A stretch of DNA of 64,000 bases from contig CAVZFC010000035.1 of assembly GCA_963774445.1 (NCBI GenBank), positions 69,470 through 133,469 of the forward strand, written 5' to 3'. Shown here piece by piece: positions 20,253 through 53,841 of the stretch; position 1 is the first letter of the stretch; every line of letters starts with the position of its first letter. The stretch comes from an uncultured delta proteobacterium. Its GTDB lineage: Bacteria; Myxococcota_A; Polyangia; Haliangiales; Haliangiaceae. The notes beneath the pieces are model-generated. The model made no database searches, was not told where the DNA came from, and saw only the letters and a list, made by a program, of their open reading frames with translations. Both the position numbers and the translations under genes were made by a program.

Positions 20253-20256
<4 letters not shown>

Positions 20257-25166: not shown

Positions 25167-26204
25167 ATGGCAATCCAGGTCGACGAGCTCAACGGTACCA
25201 ACTGCAAGTCGTATCTCCTCACCGCCGGCGGCGAGGCGGTGCTGATCGATCCGGTGCGCGAGCGAATCGAAATCTACCGGCGCGAGCTGATCGAGCGCCA
25301 CGTGCGCCTGGTGGCTATCCTCGAGACCCACACGCACGCCGATCACCTCAGCATCAGCCGCGAGATCAAGGAAAGCCTGGGCGCGCCGATGATCATGCAC
25401 CGCAAGAGCCCCAGCCCACTGGTCGACCGCCACGTCGATCAGGGCGACGTGGTCGAGGTCGGTGGCGAACGGATCGAGGTCCTGGTCACCCCCGGACACA
25501 CCCCCGATTCGGTCTCGTACCGCATCGACGGCGCGGTCTTCAGCGGCGACACCCTGCTCATCGGCGGCTCGGGACGCACCGACTTTCCCGGCGGCGATCC
25601 GGGGGCCCAGTACGACGCGATCACCGGGGTCCTGTTCGGACTGCCCGACGAGACCGTGGTCTGGCCGGCCCACGACTACCGGGGCAACACCAGCAGCACG
25701 ATCGGTGCCGAGAAGGCGAGCAACCCGCGCGTCGCCGGCAAGGGCCGCGACGAGTACATCGACATCATGAACAACCTGGGGCTGCCGTTTCCCCAGCGCA
25801 TCCAGCAGGTGCTGCAAGTCAACCAGTCCGGCTTCGAGACCCACGAGGTGATCTTCCCCACCGTCGCGGACGTCGCCGACGTCGATCAGATCGAGCCCGG
25901 CCAGCTGGCAGCTAACGTCGCCGCCGCGGAGTCACCGGTGATCGTCAACGTCCGCGAGCCGGAAGAGTTCGTCGGCGAGCTCGGCCACATCGAGGGCGCG
26001 CTCCTGGTGCCGCTCGACAGCCTGCAGCGGCGGTTGCCCAAGCTGGCCGGCTACGTCAACCGGCCGCTGGTGGTCGTCTGTCGCTCGGGCGCGCGCAGCG
26101 CCAGCGCCTGCGCCATGCTGCGCCGGGCCGGCTTCGCCGCGGTCTCCAACCTGTCGGGCGGCATGCTCGCCTGGCGCGACGCGGGCTTTTCGGTCCACCG
26201 CTAG
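25167..26204 (+). CDS. Persulfide dioxygenase (ETHE1-like MBL fold) fused to C-terminal rhodanese domain
   Basis: HTHADH metal-binding motif in the MBL fold. C-terminal rhodanese domain with active-site Cys (CRSGARS). Confidence 0.85.
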   Translation: MAIQVDELNGTNCKSYLLTAGGEAVLIDPVRERIEIYRRELIERHVRLVAILETHTHADHLSISREIKESLGAPMIMHRKSPSPLVDRHVDQGDVVEVGGERIEVLVTPGHTPDSVSYRIDGAVFSGDTLLIGGSGRTDFPGGDPGAQYDAITGVLFGLPDETVVWPAHDYRGNTSSTIGAEKASNPRVAGKGRDEYIDIMNNLGLPFPQRIQQVLQVNQSGFETHEVIFPTVADVADVDQIEPGQLAANVAAAESPVIVNVREPEEFVGELGHIEGALLVPLDSLQRRLPKLAGYVNRPLVVVCRSGARSASACAMLRRAGFAAVSNLSGGMLAWRDAGFSVHR

Positions 26205-31088: not shown

Positions 31089-34000
31089 TTGCTCACCGTC
31101 ACCTTGCGCGCCGCGCTGCGGCCGTTGGTCGCCGGCGCGTACATCTCCTCGGCGCGCGCGGGCAGGGCCGAGAAGCTGCCGGGCAGGGTCGCCCGCACAA
31201 GGTAGGTCAGCTCGAGCCTGCCGTTCATTCGGTCGGCGAAGCCGAGCACCCGGTCGTCGTGCAACTCGGTGTGGGTCCAGCCGTAGCGGTAGCCGTAGCG
31301 GTAGCCGTAGCGATTGCTGCCGTAGCTGCGCGAGGCCTGCTGCGACGTGGCCAGCTTGGTGTTGACCGCCTCGAAGCCGGCGGGCAGGTGATCCTCGACG
31401 GCGACCCAGTTGCGCTGCTTGAGCGAGCTCACGCCGACGACCACCCGGACCAGCTGGCCGGCGTGGAACGAGGTGATCGTCGCGCCGGTGTCGGCGTCAA
31501 CGTAGACGCGATCGACGTGGATGCCGTTGTCGATGGCGACCGCGGCCGGGTCGCGCCGCGCCTCGGTCAGCTGCACCGCGTAGCGCACCGGGCCGTCGGC
31601 GCGGATGCTGACCGTCCCCGGCTTCAGCTTGTCGAGGTTGCGGCTGATCGACAGCACGGCGCCGCCTTTGAGCTCTCGGGTGATCGTGTCGCCACCGACC
31701 TTCACGGAGACCGATGCCGAGCCGTTGGCCGCGGTGCGGGCGTAGTCGGCCAGCGCGACCAGCGCGTACAGGTTGTCCTGGGTGCTGGTCCAGCGCCCGC
31801 TGCTGGAGCGCAGCTGCTTCAGCCCGTCGACCAGCTGCGGAATCGCCGGCGACGTGGGCGACGACTCGAGCAGCGCCGACAGGGCGATCGCCGTCAACCT
31901 CGCGTCCGAGCTCATGTAGTAGGCGCTCTCGGACATCGACTCGCGGACGACGGCGCCGTGGCCGGTCTGTTGCAGGGCGGCCAGCAGCTCGCCCTCGAGG
32001 GTGCGCTGCTCTGCGCTTGTCGAATGGTCGCGCGGCGCCTTGGCTCGCACCATCGCGCGCAGGAGGAACGCCTGGCCGTAGCGGGGCAGGGCGGCGCGGG
32101 TGTCGAATAGTCGGGCCTCGAGGCCGTGGTCCGGCTTGCCCGCCTCGGCCAGCACGTAGGCGGCCATCGCCACGGTGCCGGTCTCGCCGCCGGGGCCCAG
32201 GGTGCGCTGCGGCGCGTTGGCCCAGGTGCGGATGGCGGCCAGGCCGCGGTCAATGGCGCCGTCGTCAACCTTGACCCCCGCGCGCTTGGCCTCGAGCAGG
32301 CCATAGGTCGCGTAGACAGTCAGGTGCGGGTAGGTCGGCCCGCTCGGCCACAAGCTGTAGTGACCGTCGGCGTGCTGGTGGCGGACCACCTTGGCCGCGC
32401 CGGCGCGGATGTAGGCGCGCAGCTTGGGGCCCTTGAGCGACGCCATGCCCAGCGAGTCGGCCAGGTCCTTGACCTTGGTCAGCGGGATGAAGCGCGACAG
32501 CGTCTGCTCGAGGCAGCCGTACGGGTAGTGAATCAGGTAGCGCAGGCTGGGCTCGAGGTCGGCCAGGCCGGTCCGGTCAACCGTGATCGACAGCGTGCTG
32601 GCGTCGGCGACGCTGTCGCCGCGCCAGGTCGCAGGCACCGTCACCGGGGCGTTGGCCGCGATCGCGCCGCGGGCCAGTGACCGGGTCTCGGGGATGAGCC
32701 CGCGGTCGATTGGGACGTCAACGCGCAGGGCGTCGCGCTCGCCGCCCATCGACGCGGCAAAGGTGAAGCGGGCGCTGTCGACGTCGGCGGCGCTCACGTG
32801 AAAGCGCACGCGGGCGCTTCCGCCGGCGGCGACCTGGACCCGCTTGACCGTCGCGCCGCTGATGCCGGCGCCGCGGGCGCGCGCGGTCACCTTCGCGGTG
32901 CCGGCGGCGCCGGTGTAGTTGCGCACGACCACGCCGACCTCGGCCGCGTCACGGGCGGTCAGGAAACGCGGCAGCACCGGCTCGAGCAGGAGCGGCTTCT
33001 TGACCGTGATGCGCCGGTCGCCGGAGCCGAAGCGACTGCCGTCGTCGGCCGCCACTGCCATCAGGCGGAACGCGGTCAGGTTGTCGGGGGCCTCGAAGTG
33101 GAAGGCGATCGTGCCGTGGTCGTCGGTGACCAGCGCCGGCGCCCAGTAGGCCGACTGGACGAAGCGCGAGCGCACGCCCGGCTCGTCGTCGCCGCCGGAG
33201 TCGCCGCCCTCGTCCGGATCGATCACCGACGGGTCGTCGAGGCGGACGATGCGGTTCCAGTTGGTCGAGCTGTCGATGCCCATGCCCCAGCTGGCGTAGA
33301 AGCTCTTCATCGGGTCGGGCGTCTTGTAGGCGATCAGCTGCAGCACGCCCTCGTCGGCGACCGACAGCGACACCTCGGCGGCGACCGGCTTGCCGCCGGA
33401 GGTCACGGTGATCGTGCCCTTCACCTCGTCGCCCGGGCGATACTCGCCGCGCTCGGTGGCGACCTCGACCTTCAGCCGGTGGGCGTCGGGGGAGACCTTC
33501 AGGTCGACCATGCCCATCTTGAAGCGCGGGCGCTTGGCGTCGCCGGGACCGGAGCGGCCGGTGACCATCGCCACCGTGGCGAAGACGTTGGGCGCGTGGG
33601 CTCCGGTGAGCGGGATCGAGAATCCCCTCGCTGGCCCGGGCCAGGTGGACGACCTTTGCCTCGAGGATGCCGTTGCGCTCGAGGGTGACCAGCGCGGTGG
33701 CGTCGGTCAGGCCGGTGCGCGGCACCAGTCGCGCGGTCTCGCCCGGCTGGTAGGCGCGCTTGGACGCGATGAGGCTCATACGCGCCGACTCATCGCCGCT
33801 CCAGAACGCCTCGCCCTTGCCCAGGATCCAGACGTAGTCGGAGCTGGCGACCGGGTTGCCGTGGCCGTCCTTGGTGTCGACGCGGATGAAATACTCGCCC
33901 GCGTGCTCGGGCATGATCGGCTCGGTGCCGACGCCGGTCGCGGGGATGTCGATGTCGCGCTCCAGCGCCACCTTGTGCACCGCCTTGCAGGTGCGGTACG

Positions 34001-36752
34001 CGCGGTAGCCGTCGCTGTAGGTGCACTGGTAGTCCTGCCGGATCAGCGACAGCTTGGCCTTGGTCGCCACGCGCTTGCCCTCGGGCGACAGCGCGACGAC
34101 GTTGACCGAGAACGGCATGCCGACCGCCTGTACGTACTCCTGCGTGTGCAGGCCGACGTAGAAGTCGGTCTTGTGCGCGGTGACCACGGTGGTCTTGCTG
34201 ACCGTCTGGTCGGTCTCGTCGGTGACCTGGGCGTTGAGGATGTAGTCCTGCGGGCCGTCGAATTCGAGCTGCGGATCGCGCACGCGGATCGACATCTTGC
34301 CCTTGCCGTCGGTCTTGCCCTCGCCGTCGGTGAGGTAGCTCGAGTAGCTGGACCGATCCCAGCGCGACCAGTAGTCCTCGCCGCGCGCCGCCCAGTCCGA
34401 GAAGCCGTACTCGGGGTAGTCGGCGAACTCCAGGTCGTGGGCGCGTCGCTCGACGCTCCAGTTCACCTTGGCGCCCGCGACCGGGGCGCCGAACAGATAG
34501 TCGGCGCCGAGGTCGAAGCGAACCGGGCCGCCCAGCCGCGTCTGCCGCTTGGCGCCGCGAAGCTTAAGCTCGTAGGTGACCTTGCGGAACTCCTCGACGC
34601 TGAACCGCTCGTGGAACGTCTGCCCCTTGATGGTCGCGCGCACGTAGTAGTCGCCCAGGCTGGCGGCCTCGGGCAGCGGCAGGTCGAAGTGGAAGCCGCC
34701 GAACCGGCTGAGCCGCTTCTTGGCCGTGTAGACCGACTGGCCGCGCGCGTCCTCGACGGTGATCGCCACCCTCGACTTGCCCGGCACCACCGGCTCGGCG
34801 CCGACCTCAATCTCGCGGACGATCCCCTTGAAGTGCACCGTCTCGCCCGGCCGGTAGATGCCGCGGTCGGACTGGATGAAGCCGCGGATGCGGGTGTCGC
34901 CGCTGCGCCGATCCTCGGGCACGCCGAAGTTCCAGGTCTGGATGCCGTTGGCCCAGTTGCCGTCGACCACGCCGAGGTCGCCGGCGCGCTCGACCACCAC
35001 GATCAGTCGCTGCGAGCGGTAGCTCCAGAAATCCTCCTCGGGATCCTCTTCGAAGTCGTCCTTGTCGCGGGCGCCCGGCTGTCGCAGCAACGTGGTGGTG
35101 CCCGGCGTGCGCAGGATGCCGTCCTTGTCGGTGGTGCCGCGGTGGGCCAGGCGCCCCTGCGGCGTGTAGATGCTGACCTTCGCGCCGGCGACCGGCTTGC
35201 CGGTGGCGATGCTGGTGACCCAGACCAGCCCGGACGCGGTGCCGGCCTTGGTCAGGATGCCCAGGTCGGTGACGTTGGCCAGGATCCGCCGGCTGGGGTG
35301 GTAGCGCCACGGCTGGTCGGGGTCCTCCTTCACGTCGGGCGAGCTCATCGCCGCCAGGTAGAGGCCGCGGGCGCTGGTGCCGCCGCAGGCGTCGCGCAGG
35401 TCGAGCCGGCTGAGATGCCAGTTGTTCTTCGGTTGGTCGATGCTGACCGTGCGCGACTTGTCGCGCAGGCCGAGCTTCTTCCACGACACGCTGGTGTCCT
35501 GGGCGTCGTACCAGGGGTCGTAGTCCATCGACGAGGTCAACAGCGCGACCACCTTTGCGGCCGGCACCGCGGCGCAGTCGACGGCGAACGATTTGACGTT
35601 GCGCGTCCAGACCGGGTAGCCGCCCTGGCTCGGCTCGACCGCGTAGATGCCGGTCTGCACCACCAGCCGTGGCTTGCCGTCGCCGGTGTGGAAGGTGTGG
35701 ACGCTATCGGCGGCCAGCTTCTGGCCGTAGAGATCTGTGAGGCCCTTCTTCAGCGTCAGCGCGTAGGCGGTCTTGGTCTTCAGGTCGGCGGTGACGCGGT
35801 AGACGGTGCCGGTCTTGTCGAGCCAGCCGTTGTCGAAGCCGGAGACCGCGGGGTGGATCGTCAGGGCGGTGCGGATGGCGTCGAGCGACACCGGCGTGCT
35901 CAGCTGCACCTGGAAGTCGACCTCGTCGGCCGGCACGTCGTAGCCAGCGGGGCCGACCTTGGCTACCGCCAGCGCCGGGTAGGTGTGCAGCGACGCTGAG
36001 TACGCCTCGGCGATCGGCGCGTCGCCACCGGCGCCGGTCAGGCCGTCGCAGACCAGCGAGTAGTCGGTGCCCTGCGCCAGCGCGGCTGCCGGTCGAACCG
36101 TCAGGGTGGCCGCCGCGTCGCCGGCGGGCTCGTCGGTGACCAGCGCGATCGGCGGGTCGCCGACCTCGCCGCGGATCGCGCAGTGGCCGATCACGTCGCT
36201 TACCGCGACCTCCTGGTTGAACTGGATCGGCAGCGCCGGCAGCGCCGGGAGGCGGTGCAGGTCGACGCCCGAGATCGCCTCGACCGCCAGCGGGTGGTTG
36301 ACGAACGACAGGTGGAAGCCGCCGGTGCGCCGCGCCAGGTCGCCGGTAAGCGCCAGCTGGTAGCGGGTCAACGGCCGCAGTGGCGCGTCGGGGACGACCA
36401 CCAGGGTTTGCCGATCCAACCAGTGCGCGTGCACCGCGGCCACCGGCGCGAGCGCGACCGGCGGCGCGTCGAGCGGTCGGCCCACGGCGTCGGCGCCGAC
36501 CACCGGGCGGTCGAACTGCACCCGCAGCGGTGCGTCGTCCTCGGCGGTCTGCGCCGGCGAGTACGACGTCACCACCAGATCGCGATCGGCCAGGTTGCCG
36601 CCGGAGCAGGCGACGACCGCGAGGGCGATGGTCGCGGCCACGGTGGCCAGCAGCCAGGCGCCGACGATGGCGAAGAACGAACGGGGGCAGGTGGGGCGGG
36701 CTGGGTTGGCGTGGTGCACGGCGAGATTCCTCCTCGCCGTATTTCGTTCCAC
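31085..36752 (-). CDS. Alpha-2-macroglobulin family protein (YfhM/ECAM-like), apparent frameshift near 33.6 kb
   Basis: Two long ORFs (32949..36752 and 31085..33574) in different frames together give about 1.9 kaa. N-terminal signal plus lipobox (AVVAC). The C-terminal part carries the thioester region (YPYGCLEQ). Confidence 0.8.
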
Positions 36753-37768: not shown

Positions 37769-39013
37769 ATGCTCGACGTCTCTCGCCTCCGCCAGCAGTT
37801 TCCCGCCCTCGAACGCCGCGTCGGCGGCGCGCCGGCGATCTTTTTCGACGGCCCCGCCGGCAGCCAGGTGCCGGTGCGCGTGGCCGACGCCGTGCGCAAC
37901 TACCTGCTCCACACCAACGCCAACACCCACGGCGCCTTCGCCAGCGCGCTCGAGAGCGACGCGGTGATCGACGAGGCGCGCCGCGCGGTGGCCGACCTCC
38001 TGGGCGCGAGCGATCCGTCCGAGGTCGTCTTCGGTCCCAACATGACCACCCTCACGCTGTCGCTGTCGCGCGCGCTGGCGCTGACCTGGCTGCCCGGCGA
38101 CGAGATCGTGGTCACCCAGCTCGATCACGATGCCGACGTGACGCCGTGGGTGCTGGCCGCGCGCGACGCCGGCGCCGTGGTGCAGACGGTGCCGATTCGC
38201 CCCGACACGACGCTCGACCTCGACGCGCTCGGCGCCGCGCTGTCGTCGCGCACGCGGCTGGTCGCCGTGACCGCGGCATCGAACGCGACCGGCACGCTCA
38301 CACCGCTGCCCGAGATCGCGCGCGCAGTCCACGACGCCGGGTCCGAGCTGTTCGTCAACGCCGTGCACTACGGGCCCCACGGCTTGATCGACGTCGGCGC
38401 CTGGCAGTGCGACTACCTGGCCTGCTCGGCGTACAAGTTCTTCGGTCCCCACGTGGGCATCCTGTGGGGACGGCGGGAGCGCATGCGGTCGCTGCCGGTC
38501 TACAAGGTGCGCCCGGCCGACGACACCATGCCCGGCCGCTTCGAGACCGGCACGCAGTCACACGAGGGAATCGCCGGCACGCTGGCCGCCGTCGACTACC
38601 TGGCCGAGCTGGGCCGCACGAGCGAGCCGGGCACGCCGACCCGGCGCGACGCCATCGCCGCCGCCTATCGCGCCATCGGCGAGCACGAGCGGGCGCTGTG
38701 TGCGCGCCTGCTCACCGGCCTGGCCCGCTTGCGCGGCTATCGGGTCTGGGGCCTGGCCGATCCGGAGCGCGTCGGCGACCGCGCGCCGACGGTCTCGATC
38801 ACCCACGCGCGCACGTCGCCGCAGGCGCTGGCCCAGGCGCTGGCCGCTCGCGGCATCTTCGTCTGGCACGGCAACTACTACGCCGTCGAGCTGAGCCAGG
38901 CGCTCGGCCGCGAGCCGGACGGGATGGTCCGGATCGGCCTCCTCCACTACAACACCGCCGGCGAGGTCGATCGCCTGCTGGAGGCGCTCGCCGACCTGGA
39001 TCAGAAGGCGTAG
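37769..39013 (+). CDS. Class-V aminotransferase-fold PLP enzyme (cysteine desulfurase-like)
   Basis: SAYKFFGPHVGIL carries the PLP-binding lysine. Overall aminotransferase class V architecture. Confidence 0.8.
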   Translation: MLDVSRLRQQFPALERRVGGAPAIFFDGPAGSQVPVRVADAVRNYLLHTNANTHGAFASALESDAVIDEARRAVADLLGASDPSEVVFGPNMTTLTLSLSRALALTWLPGDEIVVTQLDHDADVTPWVLAARDAGAVVQTVPIRPDTTLDLDALGAALSSRTRLVAVTAASNATGTLTPLPEIARAVHDAGSELFVNAVHYGPHGLIDVGAWQCDYLACSAYKFFGPHVGILWGRRERMRSLPVYKVRPADDTMPGRFETGTQSHEGIAGTLAAVDYLAELGRTSEPGTPTRRDAIAAAYRAIGEHERALCARLLTGLARLRGYRVWGLADPERVGDRAPTVSITHARTSPQALAQALAARGIFVWHGNYYAVELSQALGREPDGMVRIGLLHYNTAGEVDRLLEALADLDQKA

Positions 39014-40473
39014 CCGACAGCCAGGCTGAGCGCGGTGATCTGCTGGTTGTAGGTGCCCGCGCCGTCGGGCACGCGCGAGGGCGCGGCGAAGTCGGTGCTG
39101 TGGGTGACCGTGCGCTCCATGTAGAAGACGTGCAGCAGGCTGGCCATCAGCTCGACGCCGATTGACGGCATGCGGTAGCGCACGGAGCCGTTGGCCAGCA
39201 CCTTGTTGGCGTCCATGAGCGACGGGTCGAGCGTGCCGATCGGCACCGCGTTGCTGTCGAACGCCAGGCTGCCGCCGACCTCCAGTGCCGGCGACACCCA
39301 GTACGAGGCGCCGGCGCGGACGCCGTAGGTGTCCTTCCACTTGCGCCGGACGTTGACCACCACCGAATCGGCGCCCGCGGCGATCGAGCCGTCGGGGTTG
39401 AACGCGCATTTGGCGGCCGACGTCTTGGCGGTCAGGCACTGGTCGGTCAGCGTGCTCCAGCGCTGGTAATCGCCCTGCAGTCGCAGCTCCACCGCCGGCG
39501 ACAACAGGTAGCGAACGCCGACGCGGGTGACATCGGGCAGCGCCTGCACCAGATAGACGTCCGAGGCTTCCACGGGGCCGGCGCCGAGCTTGTTGGTCAA
39601 GGTGCCGCCGAGCTTCTGCGTGCCGAAGCCGGGTTGGCTCTGGTAGCTGACGCCAATCGACAGCACGTCGGTCGGTTGCCAGATGACGCCGGCGCTGGCG
39701 GCCAGGTCGGTGCCGGAGACCTCGACCAGGCTGCGGCCCTCGAGCAGCGAGCCGTTCGCGCTGACCATGTCGTCGGTGCCGGCCAGGTTGCGCGCGCGCA
39801 GGGTGGTGACCTTGGAGCTGACGATGTTCAGCCCCGCGCCGAACGACAGCCGCGCCGACGGGATGCGGTAGGCGGCGGCGGCGGTGATGTACAGCGCGCG
39901 CAGCTCGCCGCTGATGTTCTGCCAGCGCTGCACGCCGTCGACCGCGCCGGGGTAGTTGGCGTTGCCGGCGTAGGCGCTGTTCTGGTCCCAGGTGGCCTGG
40001 CCCCCGAACGGCGCAAACAGGCCGACGCCGACGCCCAGGTTGTCAACGCCGAGATCCGAGACGACGGCGGCGAACGGCGCGGCGATGAGGTTGCTCAGCG
40101 ATGCCTTGCCGGCGTTGGCCGATACCGCGTCGCGCGGCGTGCCGCTGGCGTTGTCGCCCGGGTCGAGGATCGTGCTGATGGCCGATTCCGGCCGGTCGTA
40201 GCTGGCGCTGCGCCAGGCGAACAGCCCCTCGACGTACAGATGGGTGCCGCTGCCCAGGGACAGGCCGGCCGGGTTGTAATAGATGCTGGTCGGGTGGCCG
40301 CTGGCCGGATGTCCCTCTTCACCGCCGTAACGGGCCGTGGCAAAGCCACCGGCAGCGGCGGGGCCGGTTGTCGCGGCGACGAGGGACAGAGAGAGGATCC
40401 AAACGGGGACAGGAAAGCAAAGTCGATGCGACACGGTCCTTGCACTATTGCCAAAATATTTGTAATTTTTCAA
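39001..40473 (-). CDS. Outer-membrane transport protein, OMPP1/FadL/TodX family
   Basis: Signal peptide. Beta-barrel pattern with C-terminal …AVGYAF. FadL-like N-terminal hatch region. The start may be at about 40434. Confidence 0.7.
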   Translation of the reverse strand: MKNYKYFGNSARTVSHRLCFPVPVWILSLSLVAATTGPAAAGGFATARYGGEEGHPASGHPTSIYYNPAGLSLGSGTHLYVEGLFAWRSASYDRPESAISTILDPGDNASGTPRDAVSANAGKASLSNLIAAPFAAVVSDLGVDNLGVGVGLFAPFGGQATWDQNSAYAGNANYPGAVDGVQRWQNISGELRALYITAAAAYRIPSARLSFGAGLNIVSSKVTTLRARNLAGTDDMVSANGSLLEGRSLVEVSGTDLAASAGVIWQPTDVLSIGVSYQSQPGFGTQKLGGTLTNKLGAGPVEASDVYLVQALPDVTRVGVRYLLSPAVELRLQGDYQRWSTLTDQCLTAKTSAAKCAFNPDGSIAAGADSVVVNVRRKWKDTYGVRAGASYWVSPALEVGGSLAFDSNAVPIGTLDPSLMDANKVLANGSVRYRMPSIGVELMASLLHVFYMERTVTHSTDFAAPSRVPDGAGTYNQQITALSLAVGYAF

Positions 40474-40527
40474 CTGTGTTGAACGTTTGAAATTACTGGC
40501 CTAGCCATTATTTCAGCTACTTATCTC

Positions 40528-41205
40528 ATGGCCGGCGGTTGCTCTGACTCTCGCGGGGCATTCGATGACTTCGGCAAGCGGGTCACCGACGCGAACACTG
40601 ACCATCCCGACGCCCCAATGCTGCTGGATATTCCGGATGTTACGGGCGAATTTCTGTGGGTCCTGTCGCCGTCGCCGCAGCCGGAGAGCGTCTTCTCCTA
40701 CCAGGCGACGTTGACGCTCACGAAGGGCACCGACAAGACGACCCTCGAGATTTCGCTCCAGCCGCTCAACTACATGACCCTGGAGCCGGTGGGCGACCCC
40801 ACGGTGCCGGATTCGAATCCGGTGGATGTCTCGCGCCTCACCGGCGAGTTCACCGCGCCGATCACCGGCGGCGCAGTTCCCGGCCCCGCCAACGCGATCG
40901 CGGGCATCCCGATCAACGTCAACATCACCTTGGACGGCGTCATCCGCACGGCCGATTTCCTGTGTGGGGCGATGAACGGCGCGGTGGTCTCGCCGATCAG
41001 CGTCAACCTGGACGACTCGACCTTTGGCGCCGTGCGCATCCCTGACGGCATGACCGCCAAGGACGTCACCGCCATCACCAACTGCGACGATTTCAATCCC
41101 GATGCCGACGCGGGCGTCCCGGACGCCGGCACGCCGGACGCGAGCACGCCGGACGCCGGTACGCCCGACGCCGGTGTCGCCGACGCCACGCCGACCGATG
41201 CCTGA
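40528..41205 (+). CDS. hypothetical lipoprotein with C-terminal (PDAGT)n repeats
   Basis: Begins MAGGCSD (lipobox-like). Asp/Thr-rich composition. C-terminal tandem repeats encoded at 41101..41200. Confidence 0.45.
   Translation: MAGGCSDSRGAFDDFGKRVTDANTDHPDAPMLLDIPDVTGEFLWVLSPSPQPESVFSYQATLTLTKGTDKTTLEISLQPLNYMTLEPVGDPTVPDSNPVDVSRLTGEFTAPITGGAVPGPANAIAGIPINVNITLDGVIRTADFLCGAMNGAVVSPISVNLDDSTFGAVRIPDGMTAKDVTAITNCDDFNPDADAGVPDAGTPDASTPDAGTPDAGVADATPTDA
41101..41200 (+). repeat. Tandem 15-nt repeat encoding (PDAGT)n
   Basis: ggacgccggcacgcc… repeated about 5 times at the 3' end of ORF 40528..41205. Confidence 0.7.
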
Positions 41206-46284: not shown

Positions 46285-46956
46285 CTACTGCTTTGCGTCG
46301 GTCGCCGCCCGGGCGACGCGCGCGCGCAGCTCGAGCAGATCGGGGTCGGCCGGCTCGCCGGGGTCGACCGCCCGCATCTTGCCGACCCAGCGGAAGTGGC
46401 CGCTGTCGTAGACGAAGCTCCAGATGTGGAAGCCGTTGTCCTTGCCCGCCGTGCGCAGGCGCACCGAGTAGAGCGGGGTCGGCTGAACCATCGCGGCGAG
46501 CGCCAGATTCTGGTAGCCGGTCGCGTCGGGATCGCCGGGGTGGGAGAACGACTCGACGTCGAGGTCGGTCTGCTTCTTGGCGACCAATGCTTCGAGTATG
46601 TGCCGCAGCTGATCGAAGTTGCCGGCAGTGGGCGCGTAGGCGTCGGCGAGCTTCTGTCCCATGGCGTCGCCGAACGTCCGGCGGAACCAGAGCGCGGGCT
46701 CGCGCAGCTCGAAGCTCGCGGTCAGCGCGGCGGCGCGCTTGCGATCGTGATCTTCGATCGCCGCGAACAGATCGCGAAACAGATGCTCTAGCCCTGCGGC
46801 GCTCTGCTCGTACGGGGCGTCGTCGCCACCGGCGCGGTCGTGGACCGCCTTGCCGGCTGCTCCGCTCGCACCGTGGCTGTTGTCTCCACAGGATGCCGCG
46901 GCCATGCCGAGCGCGGCGACGAGGGCGACCCACCACACCTTGCGGCATTGTCGCAC
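46285..46956 (-). CDS. hypothetical lipoprotein
   Basis: Signal peptide plus lipobox (ALGMAAASC). Start ambiguous (TTG at 47046 or GTG at about 46956). Confidence 0.45.
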   Translation of the reverse strand: MRQCRKVWWVALVAALGMAAASCGDNSHGASGAAGKAVHDRAGGDDAPYEQSAAGLEHLFRDLFAAIEDHDRKRAAALTASFELREPALWFRRTFGDAMGQKLADAYAPTAGNFDQLRHILEALVAKKQTDLDVESFSHPGDPDATGYQNLALAAMVQPTPLYSVRLRTAGKDNGFHIWSFVYDSGHFRWVGKMRAVDPGEPADPDLLELRARVARAATDAKQ

Positions 46957-47178
46957 GCGCCGCGCGGTGGGCCGTTGCGGGGTGCGTCCTGCCGGTGCCG
47001 GCCGGGTTTCACAAGCGTTTGACACGGCGCGTGAATTGGGCTCCAAACCGTAGTTGTCCTTACGTTCGGTCAGAGCGCTCCACTGTGTTCCATATTACCC
47101 AGTCTACAATCAACTTAAAATCATTGAAAAAAAGGACTCAAAAGAGAACGCGTTCTCATGTACCTTCCCGGTGCAAGT

Positions 47179-47200
47179 GGTCTGGCCAATTGGCCAGACC
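47179..47200. promoter_or_regulatory. 22-bp perfect palindrome GGTCTGGCCAATTGGCCAGACC (candidate operator) in AT-rich leader
   Basis: Exact inverted repeat about 30 bp upstream of the lipoprotein ATG at 47233. It lies inside an unusually AT-rich region (47050..47160) in a >70% GC context. Confidence 0.5.
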
Positions 47201-47232
47201 CATGTAAGTCGCACTACTCAGGGAGGGAAGAA

Positions 47233-49752
47233 ATGAGCCGTAGGGGAGTCACGGCGCTGGCGCTGGCCGTTGTGTGTTCGGCTGGCTGTTCGAATATCCA
47301 GCTCGATCCACCCGCAGAGATCATCCACGCCCGGTTCGATCCGGACGCCAAGGTGATCCCGATGCCCACCGACATCCTGCGCGACGCCGACGCGGCGCAC
47401 CTGGATGTCCCCACCGACGACGCCGACCTCACCGACGCCGAGCGGGAGTTCTACACTTTCCTCGACACCCTCGACGGTTGGTCGAGCGCGATGGCTGCGA
47501 CCGTGGAGTTCACCGCGCCGGTGAGCCCGCAGACCATCAACGCCGACACCGTGCAGGTGTGGCAGTGGCGCGAGACGCCGCGGCTGGTCAACGGCGTGCG
47601 CATCTCGCTGTCGGATGACGAGACCAAGCTGACCATCGACGCCCCGCGCGAAGGCTGGGAGCGGGGTGGCAAATACTTCGTCGTCGTTCGCGGCGGCAGC
47701 GCTGGCGTCGAGGGCAAGCGCGGCGAAAAGGTCGAGGCCGACGCCGCCTTCTACTTCCTGCGCCTGAAGGACCGCCTCGACGTGCCCGAGCACGAGCGCG
47801 CCTTCCCCGGCGATACCCGCGCCGAGCGGCAGGACAACGCCCAGAAGCTGGAGGAGATCCGCGAGGACCTGTCGCCGTTCTTCGAATTCTTCGAGGCCCG
47901 CGGCATCTCGCGCGACGAGGTCGCCGCACTCTGGTCGTTCACCGTCACCGAGCGGGTCGAGCTGGCCATGGACAAGGCGTCGCAGCGCATGCCGCTGCCG
48001 ATCGACCTGCTCATCGATCCCGACACCGGCAAGGTCGACCTGCCGGTGGCCGACTGGGACAGCGACGTCGAGGCCAACGCCAAGGTGCAGCTGCGCGAAT
48101 ACGACGGCTTCGGCACCTCGGCCAACCTGCTGTTCGGGTTCACCGGCCCGATCGATCCCGCGACCATCACCGCCGACTCGGTGCAGCTGTACGAGGCGTC
48201 CAACCCACCGCGGCTGATCCCGGCGACGGTCAACGTGCTGCCGGATCTCGAGCACGTGGAGATCATCCCCGACCACCAGCCGCTGCCGGAGCGGACCCGC
48301 TTCGCCGTGGTCGTTCACGACAGCGTGCGCGACGCCGACGGCCAGCCGATCATCGTCATGCCGGTCGGCCACTTCCTGGAGTCCAAGAGCCCGATCTACG
48401 TTGACGGCGAGAGCCAGGTCGGCGCGGTCGACGCCGACGACGCGCGCAAGCTCGAGCCGGTGCGCGCCGACGTCGAGGCCTTCCTCGGCGATCTCACCCA
48501 GGCCAGCGACACCAGCGACGTGCTGTCGGCCTGGACCTTCACGACCATGACGGTGCAGGCACCGATGGACGAGTTGGTCAAAGAGCCGGAGCTCACCCAC
48601 GTGTCGCCCGACCCGACCGACCTCCAGCACATGACCCCGCTCGAGGCGTCCAACGACTTTCCCCTCGGCTTTACCTCGCTGATCGGCGTGGGCGACGTCT
48701 ACAACGGCATGATCGAGTCGCCGATCTTCCTCGATCCGCTGACTCGGGGCTGGCGCACCGACGGCAGCTACTCGGTGGAGAAGATCCCGTTCACCATGAC
48801 CATTCCGCGGTCGGCCCAGCCGGGCAAACCGCTGCCGGTGGTGATCTTCGGCCACGCCATCATGACTGAGCGGCGCTTCGTCCTGTCGATCGCCGAGCAG
48901 TTGGCCGAGCGCGGCTTCGCCGCCATCGCCATCGACCTGCCGTTCCACGGCGACCGCACCTACTGCTGGTCGGAGGGGCCGCTCAGCATCCCCAACCCGC
49001 AGACCGGCGAGCTGACCCCGCTGCAGGATCCGTGCGAAGACGGCTACACCTGCAACGACGACGGCCGCTGCGTCGACGCGGCGGGCCACGGCAACCACCT
49101 GCGCGACTGGCCGATCATCGGCATGCACCAGGCGTCCGGCGCGGCGTTCATCGAGATCGAGCACATCGCCAACACCCGCGACCATTTTCGCCAGTCGGTC
49201 ATCGACCTGGCGTCGCTGTCGCGGGCGCTGCGCAAGGGTGACTGGGAGTCGGCGATCGGCCTGACGCTGAAGACCGACGAGCTCTACTATGTCGGCCAGT
49301 CACTGGGCGGCATCATCGGCGCCACGTTCGTGCCGCTGTCGCCCGAGATCAAGCGCGCGGTGCTCAACGTGCCCGGCGCTGACACGGTCGACCTGTTCAA
49401 GGACTCGACCTACTTCGGCCCCCACGTGCAGGCATTCTTCAACCGCGAGGGCGTCGAACCCGACAGCTTCGAGGGCCACCGCTTCCTCAACGTCGCTCGC
49501 TGGTTCATGGACTCGACCGATCCGGCCAGCGTCGCCGATCGGCTGATGACCAATCGCGACGTGCTGCTGCAGATGGCCACGCTCGACTTCATCATTCCCA
49601 ACGAGTACACGAAGAAGCTACAGGACCTGTCGGGCGCGCCGCGCCTCGACTACGTGGCCGAGCACGCCTTCCTGGTGGTGCCGGTCGAGCCCGAGTATCT
49701 GCACGGCTCGATCGACATGGCCAACTTCATCAACGGGACGCTGCAGCCATGA
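47233..49752 (+). CDS. Large lipoprotein with C-terminal alpha/beta-hydrolase (lipase/esterase-like, GQSLGG) domain
   Basis: Strong RBS (gggagggaag). Signal peptide plus lipobox (VVCSAGC). GxSxG nucleophile motif GQSLGG. Confidence 0.7.
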   Translation: MSRRGVTALALAVVCSAGCSNIQLDPPAEIIHARFDPDAKVIPMPTDILRDADAAHLDVPTDDADLTDAEREFYTFLDTLDGWSSAMAATVEFTAPVSPQTINADTVQVWQWRETPRLVNGVRISLSDDETKLTIDAPREGWERGGKYFVVVRGGSAGVEGKRGEKVEADAAFYFLRLKDRLDVPEHERAFPGDTRAERQDNAQKLEEIREDLSPFFEFFEARGISRDEVAALWSFTVTERVELAMDKASQRMPLPIDLLIDPDTGKVDLPVADWDSDVEANAKVQLREYDGFGTSANLLFGFTGPIDPATITADSVQLYEASNPPRLIPATVNVLPDLEHVEIIPDHQPLPERTRFAVVVHDSVRDADGQPIIVMPVGHFLESKSPIYVDGESQVGAVDADDARKLEPVRADVEAFLGDLTQASDTSDVLSAWTFTTMTVQAPMDELVKEPELTHVSPDPTDLQHMTPLEASNDFPLGFTSLIGVGDVYNGMIESPIFLDPLTRGWRTDGSYSVEKIPFTMTIPRSAQPGKPLPVVIFGHAIMTERRFVLSIAEQLAERGFAAIAIDLPFHGDRTYCWSEGPLSIPNPQTGELTPLQDPCEDGYTCNDDGRCVDAAGHGNHLRDWPIIGMHQASGAAFIEIEHIANTRDHFRQSVIDLASLSRALRKGDWESAIGLTLKTDELYYVGQSLGGIIGATFVPLSPEIKRAVLNVPGADTVDLFKDSTYFGPHVQAFFNREGVEPDSFEGHRFLNVARWFMDSTDPASVADRLMTNRDVLLQMATLDFIIPNEYTKKLQDLSGAPRLDYVAEHAFLVVPVEPEYLHGSIDMANFINGTLQP

Positions 49753-50975
49753 CGCGCGGAGGGATGACGATGAAACGACTGGCAACATCGATCGCATTGG
49801 CCCTGGGGCTGACCCTGGCCGCGGTCGGCACCGCGTCCGCCGGCGGCTTCTCGGTTGCCGAGCAGAGCGCCGTTGCCGGCGGCACCGCCGGGGCGTCGAC
49901 TGCCCGCGCCGACGACGCGGGCGCCGCCTGGTACAACCCCGCGGCGCTGGCCGACGGCGGCGGGGTGCGCCTCGGCTTCGGCATGTTGGCGGCGATGCCG
50001 ACGATCCACGCCGAGGCGATGGACGGCGCCTGGCAGACTGACGCGAGCTCTGGCATCTCCATGCCGCCGCAGCTCGGCGCCAGCTACGCCGCCGGCAAGC
50101 TGGCCGTGGGCGTCTTTGTCGGCGTGCCGTTCGGCGGCGGAGTCGCCTGGCCCGAGGACTGGGCCGGGCGCCACGAGATCATCTCGTCGCAGATCGAGGT
50201 CTTTCGCCTGGCGCCGTTCGTCGCCTGGCGCTTCGACCGGCTGCGCGTGTCGGCCGGCGTGCACGCCGACTTCGGCCGCATGCGCATCCGTCGCTCGCTG
50301 GACTTCGTCGACACCGACGGCGACGTGCGCATCGACATGGACGGGCGCAGCTTCGGCTTCGACCTGGCCGCCTACTACCGGGCCTCGCCCGAGCTGTCGC
50401 TGGGCGCGGCGTACAAGAGCCGCGACACCCTCGAGCTCGAGGGCGGCGCCGACTTCACCGCGCCGGACGCCTTCAGCATGAAGACCGCGGACCAGTCGGT
50501 GGGCACCAGGCTGCACCTGCCCGATCGGATCTCGTTGGGCGGGCGCTGGGCCCGCGGCAAGCTGGCCGTCCTGGGCGACGTCGACGTCACCACCTGGAGC
50601 GTCTACGACAAGCTGGTGATCGACTTTGCCAACGCCGAGACCCCCGACCCGGTGCAGACCACGGCGTGGCAGACCACGGTCGGCGTCCGTGCCGGCGCCG
50701 AGTACGCCGTGCGCCCGGCGACCACGGTGCGCGCCGGCGCCTTCGTCGACCCCAGCCCGGCGCCCAGCGACAACCTGGCGCCGTCGTCGCCCGACTCGAC
50801 CCGCCTGGGCGGCACGGTCGGGGTGAGCCACCGCTTCCGCCGCGATCTGACGGTCGATGCCTTCTACGAGCTGATGATGCTCACCGGGCGCACCTCCGAC
50901 AGCATGAACGATCTGGCCGCCCGCTACAGCGGGCACGCCCAGCTCCTCGGCGTCGGCCTGCGTCTGCACCGCTGA
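49749..50975 (+). CDS. Long-chain fatty acid / hydrophobic compound outer-membrane transporter (FadL/OMPP1 family)
   Basis: Signal peptide. FadL-like N-terminus (GGFSVAEQSA…AWYNPAAL). Beta-barrel. ATGA overlap with the upstream gene. Confidence 0.75.
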   Translation: MTRGGMTMKRLATSIALALGLTLAAVGTASAGGFSVAEQSAVAGGTAGASTARADDAGAAWYNPAALADGGGVRLGFGMLAAMPTIHAEAMDGAWQTDASSGISMPPQLGASYAAGKLAVGVFVGVPFGGGVAWPEDWAGRHEIISSQIEVFRLAPFVAWRFDRLRVSAGVHADFGRMRIRRSLDFVDTDGDVRIDMDGRSFGFDLAAYYRASPELSLGAAYKSRDTLELEGGADFTAPDAFSMKTADQSVGTRLHLPDRISLGGRWARGKLAVLGDVDVTTWSVYDKLVIDFANAETPDPVQTTAWQTTVGVRAGAEYAVRPATTVRAGAFVDPSPAPSDNLAPSSPDSTRLGGTVGVSHRFRRDLTVDAFYELMMLTGRTSDSMNDLAARYSGHAQLLGVGLRLHR

Positions 50976-51022
50976 CCGAGCTACCGGGCGCCCGCCCTTC
51001 GTGATACACGGAGGGCGGGTCC

Positions 51023-52123
51023 ATGGTCGGCAGCTCGGGCAAGCCGCGCGTGGTGCTGGTCGGGCGCCGCAAGGCGGCAGCGGCAACGGCGCGGCGGCTT
51101 GGTCTGCGTCCGGTCACGATCGTGCCCGGCGACGACGTCGTGGAGCGCGCGCGCGAAGCGCTGGCAGAGCGTCCGCCCAGCGCCGTGGTCGCGGTCTCCG
51201 AGCGTTCGGTCGCCGACGCCGCGGCGATTCGCGCGGCCCTCGGTCTGCCGGGGATGAGCGTCAACGCCGCGCACCGCTGCACCGACAAGCTGGCGATGAA
51301 GCGCGCTGCCGCGGCCGCCGGCGTGCCGATCACGCGCTGGCTGGAGGTCGAGCCGGGCGCGTGCGCCGCCGATCTGATCGACCAGCTCGGGCTGCCGCTG
51401 GTGCTCAAGCACCGCGTCGGCTCGGGCGGGCGCGAGCTTTACGTGGCGCAGACAGCGGGCGAGGTCGCGGCCGCGATGCGACCGGGCCTCCTGGCCGAGG
51501 CGTTCGTCAACGGCGTGGAGATGAGCGTCGAGAGCCTGCTGGCCGGCGGTGAGGTGGTGTTCCGCAACCCGACCCGCTACCTCGAGCCGCGCTGGGCCAA
51601 CGTCGTGCCCGCCGCGCTGCCGGCCGCCGAGCGGGCGCGCGTTTACGCGCTGGTCGACCAGGTGCACCGCGCCTTCGGCATCGACCGCGGCATGACCCAC
51701 GCCGAGCTGTTCCTGACCGAGCACGGCCCGGTTTTCGGCGAGATCGCCGCGCGCCCGCCGGGCGGTTATCTGATGGAGCTGATCCGCCTGGCGTACGGCT
51801 TCGATCCGTGGGAGGCGGTGATGCGGATCGAGCTCGGCGAGGCCCCCGCGCTGCCGCAGCAGGCGAACTGCTTTGCCGCGGTTCGCGTCGTCCACCCCGG
51901 CGCCGGCATCGTCATGGCCGTTTCCGGCGCCGATCGGGCCAGCGCGCTGCCCGGCGTCGAGCGGGTTCGGCTGGCGTTGGCTTCCGGCGACAGCGTCGGC
52001 CCGCGCCTGGGGGCCGGGCAGAATGTCGGCGAGGTCGTCGTCACCGCCGGCGATCACGATACCTGCGTCGCCCGCCTGGCCGCCGCCGCGGCCGAGCTCC
52101 ACATCGAGCTGTCACCGCACTAG
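51023..52123 (+). CDS. ATP-grasp domain protein (carboxylate-amine ligase-like)
   Basis: ATP-grasp fold motifs (…LPLVLKHRVGSGGRELYVAQT…). RBS (ggaggg). Confidence 0.8.
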   Translation: MVGSSGKPRVVLVGRRKAAAATARRLGLRPVTIVPGDDVVERAREALAERPPSAVVAVSERSVADAAAIRAALGLPGMSVNAAHRCTDKLAMKRAAAAAGVPITRWLEVEPGACAADLIDQLGLPLVLKHRVGSGGRELYVAQTAGEVAAAMRPGLLAEAFVNGVEMSVESLLAGGEVVFRNPTRYLEPRWANVVPAALPAAERARVYALVDQVHRAFGIDRGMTHAELFLTEHGPVFGEIAARPPGGYLMELIRLAYGFDPWEAVMRIELGEAPALPQQANCFAAVRVVHPGAGIVMAVSGADRASALPGVERVRLALASGDSVGPRLGAGQNVGEVVVTAGDHDTCVARLAAAAAELHIELSPH

Positions 52124-53155
52124 CGGCGGCCGATCTCTGATGCCGACGCGGGCGCCGCTGCCGGTGTTCTCGGCAAAGGCGTGGCCGCCGTGGGCGCGGG
52201 CGATGCGCTGGACCAGCGCCAGGCCGAGACCCAGCGAGCCCTGCCCGCGCCGCTCGCCGCGGTAGAACGGCTCGAATACCCGGCCGACGTCGCCGTCAGC
52301 GAACCCGGGCCCGCGGTCCTCGACCGCGATGGTCAGCTGCTCGGGCGTGCCGGTGATGCGCAACGCGACGATCTTTTCGGCGTGGCGGCGGGCGTTCTCC
52401 AGCAGGTTGCCGACCGCGCGGGCCAGCAGGGTGGCGTCGCCGGACAGCGACGTATCCGATGCTTCGACCTCCAGCACGGCGGCGTCAACGTCGGCGCGGT
52501 CGAGGGCGCGGGTGCACAGATCAACCGCGTCGAGCGGCCGGTGGTCGATGGCGTCGAACTCGACCCGCGACGTGGCGAGCAGCTGATCCACCAGATGCTC
52601 GACGTCGTCGATCTCGCGCTCGAGCTCGGCCAGGCGGTCGAGCTCGCCGTCGCGCGCCAGCTCGGCGATTACCTTCATGTGGCCCAGCGGCGTGCGCAGC
52701 TCGTGGGAGACCGCGGCCAGCAATGCCTGCTGGTCGGCCACCTGTTTCTCGATGCGCTCGGCCATGTCGTTGAGGGTGTCGCCCAGGTCGGCGATCTCGC
52801 CGGAGACGAAGTCGGGCAAGTGGACCCGCGAGGACAGGTCGCCGTCGGCGAGGTCGCGGGCCACGCGAGTGACGAGCACCAGCGGCCAGACGAGGAAGCG
52901 GGCGATCGCGCCCGACGCCGCCCACAACATGATCCCGGCGATGGCCATGGCCGCGTAGCGGTGCTCGCCGGAGGCGTCGCGGCCGAAGATGGCGCTGACG
53001 ACGACGAAGGTGACGATGATCGACAGTCCAAACCAGACGAAGATGCGCCAATGCATGCGCAGGTGCCGGGCGCGGCCTCGCGGCGTGCAGCGGTGCGGGT
53101 GATGGTCGCGAAAGGGATGGTGGCGGTAGTGCCGGTAGCGCCAGCGGTGTCTCAT
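52112..53155 (-). CDS. Two-component sensor histidine kinase with His/Arg-rich N-terminus
   Basis: HisKA H-box (AVSHELRTPL), HATPase_c N/G boxes, TM plus HAMP-like region. The start overlaps the stop of the response-regulator gene. Confidence 0.85.
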   Translation of the reverse strand: MRHRWRYRHYRHHPFRDHHPHRCTPRGRARHLRMHWRIFVWFGLSIIVTFVVVSAIFGRDASGEHRYAAMAIAGIMLWAASGAIARFLVWPLVLVTRVARDLADGDLSSRVHLPDFVSGEIADLGDTLNDMAERIEKQVADQQALLAAVSHELRTPLGHMKVIAELARDGELDRLAELEREIDDVEHLVDQLLATSRVEFDAIDHRPLDAVDLCTRALDRADVDAAVLEVEASDTSLSGDATLLARAVGNLLENARRHAEKIVALRITGTPEQLTIAVEDRGPGFADGDVGRVFEPFYRGERRGQGSLGLGLALVQRIARAHGGHAFAENTGSGARVGIRDRPPLVR

Positions 53156-53841
53156 GGAAGCTCACGCGCCAGCGTGTAGCCGACCCCGCGCACGGTCTTG
53201 ATTCGCCTCGGTGCTCGCGGATCGTCGCCCAGCTTCTTGCGCAGCTTGGAGATGTGGACGTCGACCGTGCGTTCACCGACGCTGACGTCGTCGCGACCGG
53301 CCAGAGACAACAGGGCGTTGCGCGGCACCACCCGCCCGGCGCGGCGCATGAGCGCGACCAGGAGGTCGAACTCGAGCCCGGTCAGGTCGACCCTGGCACC
53401 GTCCACCGTAACCTCTCGCGTCCCGGGCGCCGCGACGATGCCGGCCACCGACAGCCGCTCGTCTTCGGTCGCCGGCGCTGTTCGGCGCAACACCGCGCGC
53501 AGCCGGGCCAGGAGCTCGCGCGGACTGAACGGCTTGGCGACGTAGTCGTCGGCGCCGAGCTCGAGGCCGACGACGCGGTCAGCCTCGTCGCCGCGGGCCG
53601 TCAGCATGAGCACCGGCACGCGGTCTCCGCCGCGGCGCAACCGGCGCAGCACCTCGAGGCCGTCGAGCCCGGGCATCATGCCGTCGAGCAGCACGGCGTC
53701 GAAGCCGCCGGCGTTGAGCGCGGCCAGGCCGGCGGCGCCGTCGCTGGCATGGGCTAGGCTGACGCCGTTGCGCCCGAGGTACTCGTCGAGCAGCTCGAAC
53801 AGGCGGGCGTCGTCGTCGATGAGGAGCACGCGCACGGCCAT
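53152..53841 (-). CDS. OmpR-family response regulator
   Basis: Receiver domain (LLIDDD…D…K) plus winged-helix trans_reg_C (…RGVGYTL). Confidence 0.9.
   Translation of the reverse strand: MAVRVLLIDDDARLFELLDEYLGRNGVSLAHASDGAAGLAALNAGGFDAVLLDGMMPGLDGLEVLRRLRRGGDRVPVLMLTARGDEADRVVGLELGADDYVAKPFSPRELLARLRAVLRRTAPATEDERLSVAGIVAAPGTREVTVDGARVDLTGLEFDLLVALMRRAGRVVPRNALLSLAGRDDVSVGERTVDVHISKLRKKLGDDPRAPRRIKTVRGVGYTLARELP

Follow-up and report, generated by a model that had tools for sequence, protein, structure and literature searches.

We analysed a 64-kb stretch of DNA (64,000 nucleotides, hereafter the window) from an uncultured member of the Myxococcota, which carries an operon for a lipoprotein lipase and a FadL-type outer-membrane channel. 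The 279-bp intergenic region ahead of the lipase gene (46954–47232), putatively the control region of this two-gene operon, contains a short box, AAGTGGTCTGGCCAATT (47175–47191, plus strand), that is conserved among orthologous loci and finds its closest documented match in the operators of FadR and other GntR-type regulators. Judging from the sequence, it is on balance probable that the box is the site of a dimeric FadR-subfamily (GntR-type) repressor controlling the lipase–FadL operon. An earlier note on this DNA had described an AT-rich leader followed by a 22-bp perfect palindrome in this region, and had taken the whole palindrome for a dimeric repressor operator. The palindrome is indeed exact (11 + 11 bp, 47179–47200, GGTCTGGCCAATTGGCCAGACC) and a conserved site of the protein-binding type does lie there, but the 22 bp as a whole are not the conserved unit. 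That unit is the left arm with the centre, which this lineage has elaborated into a perfect palindrome. The locus reads as one more regulated operon for lipid scavenging, of a kind already known, and its cis-element appears to be a FadR-type box extended to a perfect palindrome in this lineage.

Conservation was measured across 14 upstream regions from loci whose lipases share 67–94% identity (the window, L001, L059, L002, L004, L009, L005, L007, L010 and L087–L091; related loci are numbered L001–L092), with majority-base fractions computed over the 11 non-redundant sequences of this clade in a stack anchored on the box. The sequences stack with almost no indels over ~85 nt. The majority fraction is 0.94 over 47178–47190, compared with 0.54 over the right arm of the palindrome (47191–47200) and 0.48–0.61 over the flanks. 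The 13-nt core, TGGTCWGGCCAAT (47178–47190, plus strand), which comprises the left arm and the centre, is kept in all members of the clade, with the variants TGGTA AGG in L002 and L087 and CGGTCTGGCCACC in L088. The right arm, in contrast, is intact in the window, carries one mismatch in L001 and L059 and two changes in L005, is displaced by a 6-nt loop in L002, is vestigial in L007, L010, L088 and L090, and is absent from L004, L009, L087, L089 and L091. Reading the minus strand reveals a second, weaker box in inverted orientation (CATGGGTCTGGCCAATT, 47188–47204), the centre of which lies 13 bp from that of the first; the 22-bp palindrome is the conserved box combined with this lineage-specific inverted one. 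Paired boxes 9–14 bp apart recur in L007, L010, L024, L069, L021, L026 and L033, and there is no conserved need for the second box in the right arm.

Taken alone, the 22-bp palindrome is weak, non-significant evidence. Among windows simulated with a Markov-2 model of the trinucleotide statistics of this window, 14% contained a perfect palindrome of at least 22 bp (mean 0.16 per window). With its bare occurrence at this chance level, the palindrome draws its weight from its intergenic position and its conservation. It is present as a single copy within the window, even with up to three mismatches permitted, and the regulon that the earlier note hoped to define from further copies did not emerge, with no other intergenic copy in the 64 kb. 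We rejected a repeated or mobile element, such as a repetitive extragenic palindrome (REP) or a miniature inverted-repeat transposable element (MITE), because the window has a single copy with three mismatches allowed and, across loci, the sequence is found only at the orthologous position. An intrinsic terminator was also rejected, as the palindrome is not followed by a T-tract and the upstream gene is divergent. The lesson in method is that a striking perfect palindrome is not necessarily the conserved unit; here, half of it is specific to one lineage.

A protein search of a genome collection yielded just one close relative, and a metagenome scan provided 78 further loci (34–91% identity), extending the comparison well beyond the close clade. 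The exact clade motif is limited to the close relatives, and TGGTCnGACC-type boxes lie in many of the distant upstream regions, within ~100 nt of the start codon. The pattern TGGTCNRRCC is present in 21 of 61 non-redundant 200-nt upstream regions, from orthologues down to ~55% identity, at a density 26 times that of the other 471 kb in these loci, and TGGTCNGACC is enriched 174-fold upstream. The distant boxes include CCTGGTCGGACCGAG in L017, CTTGGTCCGACCG in L022, TTGGTCCGACCAG in L012, CTGGTCGAACCAC in L027, L049, L052 and L084 (with GTGGTCGAACCAC as the example from L049) and CTGGTCAGGCCGGTTCGACC in L021, L026, L033 and L067, while L024 and L069 each carry two boxes 14 bp apart. A de novo comparison of 6-mers with dinucleotide shuffles recovered CTGGTC (z = 5.5), placed just after the −35-like CTTGAC/TTGACT group, TCAATA and TCTTGA.

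A position weight matrix (PWM) was built from 14 distant-lineage boxes only, with the window's own clade left out. This matrix ranked 47175–47191 first of ~128,000 window positions on both strands (14.6 bits), and scored the inverted box at 47188–47204 (minus strand) at 11.1 bits, among the 16 best-scoring window sites listed. As an independent confirmation, the PWM assigns the window's box to the motif family of the distant orthologues. Third in the same list is a minus-strand match, AGCTGGTTGAACCTGTC (25089–25105, 13.0 bits), which lies ~70 nt upstream of a metallo-beta-lactamase/rhodanese gene (25167–26204); this match falls inside the end of the preceding open reading frame (ORF) and is probably due to chance.

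The closest documented counterparts are the FadR sites of E. coli, as contained in published probes for electrophoretic mobility shift assays: AGCTGGTCCGACCTATA and CACTGGTCTGATTTCTA for fadL, GGCTGGTCCGCTGTTTC for fadD, ATCTGGTACGACCAGAT for fadBA and AACTGATCGGACTTGTT for fabA (PMC4259882). The boxes described here match fadL site 1 (CTGGTCCGACC) and site 2 (TGGTCTGA), and have in common with the E. coli sites the core CTGGTCnGACC, a right half looser than the strong left one, and A/T-rich flanks, although the window's box reads GGCC in place of GACC. The uneven strength of the two halves is apparent in the E. coli sites as they are written in the probes. FadR-subfamily GntR sites have been described more generally as A/T-rich palindromes of the form TKGT-N3-ACMA, often with a weaker extra box 7–12 nt from the centre (PMC4494728), and this form is fully fitted in distant orthologues by TGGT-CGA-ACCA and, in L012, by TGGT-CCG-ACCA. 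Two FadR sites are present at the E. coli fadL promoter (PMC3460868). The layout at this locus is the same, with two neighbouring sites at or just after the promoter, but here the second box overlaps the first in inverted orientation, with 13 bp between the centres, whereas that of E. coli is a separate 17-bp site 8 bp away. A PWM made from the E. coli sites only reached at least 10 bits in 23% of the upstream regions and in 5% of the background chunks, a contrast that is inflated by base composition. FadR proper is, to our knowledge, a gammaproteobacterial protein, so the binder may be another FadR-subfamily GntR regulator.

The AT-rich island that the earlier note had placed ahead of the palindrome is found at 47044–47143, with a GC content of 0.40. 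It is the second-lowest 100-nt stretch of a window with 70.9% GC, in which only 0.3% of 100-nt stretches have 45% GC or less. Because most of the island lies 5′ of the likely transcription start, it is likely to be a promoter more than the ‘leader’ it had been called. The order and spacing of elements are conserved across the clade, running from TAAAATCATT through the A-tract GAAAAAAAGG, a −35-like hexamer, a 16–17-nt spacer and a −10-like hexamer to exactly 13 nt and then TGGTCWGGCCAAT. The gap between the −10 and the box is fixed at 13 nt, with zero indels in the 14 sequences. In the window, the −35 equivalent is a degenerate CTCAAA (47137–47142, plus strand), which reads TTCACA or TTTACA in L004, L005, L007, L010 and L088, and the −10 equivalent is TGTACC (47159–47164, plus strand), for which relatives have TATACT, TATAGT, TAAGGT, TACACT or TGTAGT. 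Consensus-like hexamers occur in distant lineages (TTGTCA-17-TAGGAT in L016, and TTGCAT-17-TAGAGT in L018 and L025). The most likely arrangement is a sigma70-type promoter (CTCAAA, 16 nt, TGTACC) with a predicted start near 47171.

The A-tract (47126–47135, plus strand) sits directly 5′ of the −35, at approximately −46 to −37 from the predicted start, and the majority fraction over 47116–47135 is 0.72 in the clade stack. UP elements, which accompany strong sigma70 promoters of the rrnB P1 type, have the consensus AAAAAARNR. The window's A-tract matches this consensus at that position and is preceded by an A/T-rich distal part, although the conserved TAAAATCATT is more sequence-specific than a UP element requires. 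The island therefore includes what looks like an A/T-tract upstream of the −35, in the position and with the composition of a UP element, and its use by the C-terminal domain of the RNA polymerase alpha subunit is putative here. Within it, the hexamer TAAAAT (47116–47121, plus strand), present as TAAAAT, TACAAT, GAAAAT or CAGAAT in 11 of the 14 clade sequences, is either the distal portion of the UP-like element or a −10 hexamer belonging to an alternative promoter further upstream (P1), for which no −35 partner was found in the window sequence. Still further upstream, a distal block, GGGTTTCACAAGCGTTTGACACGGCGCGTGAATTGG (47003–47038, plus strand), includes the hexamer TTGACA together with one copy of ‘motif A’ (TGACACGGCGC), and is conserved in L001, L002, L005, L059, L087, L090 and L091. 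This block may have arisen by duplication of a promoter module, or may serve the divergent lipoprotein gene as its promoter or control region; its sequence resembles the proximal promoter of L088, GGGTTCACATTCTGACGCACTGCAATACACT.

The 16-nt promoter spacer is filled by a second perfect palindrome, GAGAACGCGTTCTC (47144–47157, 14 bp), which the earlier note had overlooked. Palindromes of this length are present in the window at chance count (18 of exactly 14 bp observed; simulated mean of 17.8 for at least 14 bp). The arms vary symmetrically between species, reading GAGAAC/GTTCTC in the window, TAGAAC/GTTCTA in L001 and L059, CTAGAAC/GTTCTAG in L089, GTGAAAC/GTTTCAC in L002, TGAAAC/GTTTCA in L087 and L014, TTGAAAC/GTTTCAA in L090 and, with a G·T pair, TGGAAC/GTTTCA in L004, and the motif type is enriched 20-fold upstream. 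In L005, L007, L010, L088 and distant lineages, its place is taken by T(A/G)ACGCnnnGCA, which is 27-fold enriched on the forward strand. This motif sits between consensus-like hexamers, in support of the promoter assignment, and points to a second regulator. The 14-bp palindrome is probably the site of such a regulator; symmetric covariation is also expected from an RNA stem or from template-switch ‘correction’ of a quasi-palindrome, and the pattern is open to both.

One candidate type for the spacer site is suggested by PsrA, a TetR-family regulator that senses long-chain fatty acids and has the operator C/GAAAC-N2-4-GTTTG/C, with sites that overlap the core promoter (PMC13104628). The spacer palindromes of L002, L087, L090 and L014 read GAAAC-N2-GTTTC and overlap the core promoter in the same manner. 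The window, however, has GAGAAC-GC-GTTCTC, with GAAC and not AAAC, and so falls outside the PsrA pattern; there is no TetR gene nearby in the clade, and we regard the likeness as a resemblance only. A lipid-responsive regulon of Kofleriaceae-type Myxococcota, in which a FadR-like GntR protein on a near-E. coli operator and a PsrA-like spacer operator would give dual lipid sensing of the surface lipase and FadL, is a speculative extension that we put forward with considerable doubt.

From the sequence features, their conservation and spacing, the upstream enrichment and the match to documented FadR sites, we infer the following working model. Transcription would start near 47171 from the sigma70-type promoter, the hexamers of which are degenerate here and near consensus in relatives. 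A dimeric FadR-subfamily repressor would bind AAGTGGTCTGGCCAATT, centred at approximately +12 and 13 nt after the −10, and once bound would block initiation or promoter escape, until a lipid-derived ligand, for example long-chain acyl-CoA, frees it from the site. The inverted weaker box that the right arm adds in this lineage, 13 bp off, could allow a second dimer or stronger binding. The regulator is hypothetical; if there is one, its gene would lie at another place in the genome, an arrangement that also holds for fadR in E. coli.

Several observations weigh against this model. The window core, TGGT-CTG-GCCA with an AATT flank, deviates from TKGT-N3-ACMA at one position, with G for A (GCCA for ACCA). 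A strict sigma70 scan calls no promoter here, and both hexamers are poor in the window. By Pfam, none of the ~55 ORFs across the window is a GntR or TetR gene, and tblastn with an E. coli FadR query gave nothing below E 0.7 against the window and L001–L086 (86 of the 92 related loci). The local TetR/GntR/FadR-type regulators that the earlier note had expected were thus found neither in the 64 kb nor in those 86 loci, which differ from E. coli in that no FadR gene was found in them or in the window. Pattern and PWM scans of the 64-kb window returned only coding-region or unconvincing matches, none of them before beta-oxidation genes. The position of the box is also non-uniform, since in L027, L049, L052 and L084 it lies just 5′ of a TTGACT hexamer and not 3′ of the start. 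Finally, TGGTCNRRCC occurs 22 times in the forward and twice in the reverse orientation, that is, mostly on the lipase coding strand; so strong a bias would not be anticipated for an operator with dyad symmetry, and would suit an element that acts in RNA or is tied to the promoter.

This orientation bias is one of the points that speak for the main rival, which we consider unlikely, namely that the palindrome acts as RNA. In this view, the lipase mRNA would carry a stem-loop close to its 5′ end that stabilises the transcript or modulates translation, and the 14-bp palindrome would form a second hairpin in a leader that starts from a TAAAAT promoter near 47128. Folding of the window palindrome predicts a strong hairpin with a 9-bp stem (about −19 kcal/mol), and strong hairpins are also predicted for L005 and L002; both right-arm changes in L005 give G-U pairs on the plus strand, and one pair is changed on both sides, from U-A to A-U, in L007 and L010. 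The fixed distance to the −10 is compatible with a 5′-proximal element, TAAAAT is well conserved, and the spacer palindrome varies symmetrically, with the G·T intermediate of L004 corresponding to G·U on the plus strand. Against this, the 5′ arm keeps an invariant sequence, the 3′ arm can be dispensed with (it is lost in L004, L009, L087, L089 and L091), and the single boxes of distant lineages have no partner arm and are sometimes 5′ of the −35 hexamer; for these reasons, we favour recognition of the DNA by a protein. Nor does folding analysis argue for a conserved RNA. Paired cells amount to 75%, against 71.5% in shuffles, RNAalifold on the 14 leaders gave −2.2 kcal/mol with no consensus structure and no covarying pairs, and an Rfam scan of 46900–47350 yielded only a chance SECIS_2 match upstream of the palindrome (22.5 bits against 70). 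The TAAAAT hexamer also has no −35 partner.

Perfect dyad symmetry, with one mismatch in L001 and L059 and two in L005, is what recommends the proposal of the earlier note, in which the whole 22 bp is one operator for one locally encoded TetR/GntR/FadR dimer serving a lipase/FadL/ATP-grasp module. We think this improbable, as the right arm is conserved no better than background, the regulator searches of the window and L001–L086 described above found no local candidate, conservation of the operon does not extend to the ATP-grasp gene, and such palindromes arise by chance in the 14% of simulated windows already mentioned. It is very improbable that the box is itself a promoter element, either a −35-like TGGTCA or a site of the sigma54 or extracytoplasmic function (ECF) type. 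TGGTCA agrees with TTGACA at four of six positions and lies 17 nt 5′ of TAGCAT in L021 and L026, and the strict orientation would fit, but nothing −10-like follows at 16–18 nt in L004, L087 and L089, and a start at that point would fall in the ribosome-binding site (RBS); the sigma54 spacing GG-N10-GC is absent and the downstream half is not conserved, and a true TTGACT follows the box in L049 and L027. The suggestion that nothing here is functional, and that a chance palindrome happens to lie in an AT-rich spacer, can call on the 14% expectation per window and on the single copy, yet is scarcely credible when the left half is invariant where the flanks have diverged to ~50%, boxes are 26–174-fold enriched upstream, and this box is the top PWM match of the window. 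Chance is contradicted for the box and is possible for the right arm alone.

The lipase gene (47233–49752, plus strand, with its ATG at 47233) encodes an 839-residue protein with a signal peptide, the lipobox MSRRGVTALALAVVCSAGC-S and the motif YVGQSLGG, and both Cys19 and G688/S690/G692 are invariant across 29 homologues. The earlier description of a large secreted lipoprotein with a GQSLGG lipase domain therefore holds, as does that of a strong RBS, AGGGAGGG (47220–47227, plus strand), with GGAGG-type sites in all orthologues. The lipase matches PF12262 (Lipase_bact_N) over residues 242–440 (34.9 bits, cut-off 22.3), and alpha/beta-hydrolase models of Pfam match as well. The TIGR03502 model, ‘VolA/Pla-1 family phospholipase’, gives an E-value of 1.3e-36 and 126.1 bits, under its curated cut-off of 383.9, indicating a distant VolA/Pla-1 relative that does not reach the NCBI threshold for membership of the subfamily. 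A sequence search of the PDB with the lipase gave no match, and 398 homologues were found at E ≤ 1e-10, the few named ones being Kofleriaceae, Myxococcales or ‘Deltaproteobacteria’ metagenome-assembled genomes. The product is probably a lipid-anchored lipase of the VolA/Pla-1 kind, located at the outer membrane or the cell surface.

The FadL gene (49749–50975, plus strand) is coupled to the lipase gene by the ATGA overlap that had been noted before, in which the lipase stop overlaps the FadL start (49749–49752). Its product belongs to the FadL/TodX family of outer-membrane channels, matching PF03349 at 142.6 bits (cut-off 29.7) over profile positions 4–417 of 421, which is full length, and has a signal peptide; the NCBIfam FadL equivalog model scores below threshold (42.9 against 585). 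Across the ~70 orthologous loci compared, the pairing is kept, with FadL directly after the lipase in every locus with called genes. This part of the proposed lipase/FadL/ATP-grasp module stands, but the third gene does not belong to it. The ATP-grasp gene (51023–52123, plus strand; L-amino-acid-ligase-like, with LAL_C2 at 8e-14 and ATP-grasp domains) is absent from L002, L004, L005 and L007, together with the two-component system and the CpxP-like gene, and ORFs that match these genes in order and size were found only in L001, the 94% identical relative. Because the ATP-grasp gene is restricted to the window/L001 lineage, the conserved module is the lipase and FadL without it, and the gene is a lineage-specific addition.

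In the window, an 8-bp GC stem with a 13-nt loop (CCCGCCCT/AGGGCGGG, 50991–51019, plus strand) lies between the FadL and ATP-grasp genes, where it covers the GGAGGG RBS of the latter; it has no T-tract, and no terminator was called. Downstream of the ATP-grasp gene, the opposite strand encodes a histidine kinase, an OmpR-type response regulator and a CpxP-like protein. We rejected this neighbouring OmpR-type two-component system (52112–53841) as the regulator of the operon, since it is present in the window/L001 lineage only and box-bearing relatives are without it.

On the other side of the control region, a small lipoprotein gene (46285–46953, minus strand, ~222 residues) is divergent from the operon, and its translation has a signal peptide and a lipobox ending in AAASC. 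A divergent gene of 197–246 residues without a Pfam match occupies the same position in L002, L004, L005, L007 and L088–L091, and the small lipoprotein is thus a conserved divergent partner of the lipase operon in the closer relatives. Searches with it gave no Pfam or NCBIfam match and only nine homologues. An AlphaFold2 model (predicted local distance difference test score of 74) has a confident core at approximately residues 50–200, with helices followed by a four-stranded sheet, and no fold match for this model was found in the PDB. The protein evolves much faster than the lipase, with 69% against 94% identity to the nearest relative. The wider frame that relatives share with the window runs VIT-VWA, MshEN, (lipoprotein), lipase, FadL and then, further on, aconitase and an RNase D-like gene.

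The nearest functional parallel is the volA (VCA0863)–fadL (VCA0862) operon of Vibrio cholerae, in which VolA, a surface-exposed lipoprotein lysophospholipase with a PF12262 domain, is co-transcribed with a FadL homologue; the operon is induced by lysophosphatidylcholine, and its authors suggest that FadR down-regulates it (PMC3656444). Both systems place a PF12262 lipoprotein lipase with a GXSXG serine beside fadL, and the logic proposed there is that fatty acid freed at the cell surface is imported via FadL. They differ in that the gene order is reversed here, with the lipase first, in that the sequence kinship is distant (126 bits with TIGR03502, against the cut-off of 383.9), and in that the host is a high-GC, Kofleriaceae-like member of the Myxococcota, where the small divergent lipoprotein is a conserved neighbour. 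We found no paper on the lipase–FadL module in myxobacteria. For a lipase–FadL operon found widely among uncultured Myxococcota of soil and sediment, the analysis offers a promoter layout and a concrete cis-element, TGGTCnGRCC, and it takes the VolA–FadL logic known from Vibrio into another phylum. If the binder is an acyl-CoA-sensing GntR protein, the box could be used to rebuild the fatty-acid regulon, of which we found no description for this group.

Some distant loci have other upstream elements. In L023, L028, L036, L040, L041, L043 and L046, the upstream regions contain TGAGTCAT-N-ATGACTCA palindromes and TTGA-N7-TCAAT(A) motifs, and the divergent upstream gene in L023 and L040, where it was translated, encodes a TetR-like helix-turn-helix regulator. 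These palindromes and the TetR-like gene suggest that lineages regulate the same operon differently.

Three further features of the window were recorded. Upstream of a second FadL/TodX-family gene (39001–40473, minus strand) lies the 100-nt stretch with the highest AT content in the window (40431–40530, GC 0.36), which holds the palindrome TTCAAC-ACA-GTTGAA and no TGGTC box. The third most AT-rich spot contains TGGCACGCCGTTCGCTT (18140–18156, plus strand), which fits the sigma54 −24/−12 pattern (GG-N10-GC) and lies upstream of an ORF of no assigned function and two SPFH/Band7 genes (18221–21554, plus strand), divergent from the gene for a sigma54 enhancer-binding protein (16716–18032, minus strand). 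Lastly, a bacterial alpha-2-macroglobulin is split between two minus-strand ORFs (31085–33574 and 32949–36752) that overlap by ~600 nt in different frames, a split that may reflect a frameshift, a pseudogene or an assembly error; these ORFs adjoin a gene for a PBP1C-like transglycosylase/transpeptidase (29034–31088, minus strand), in a classic pairing.

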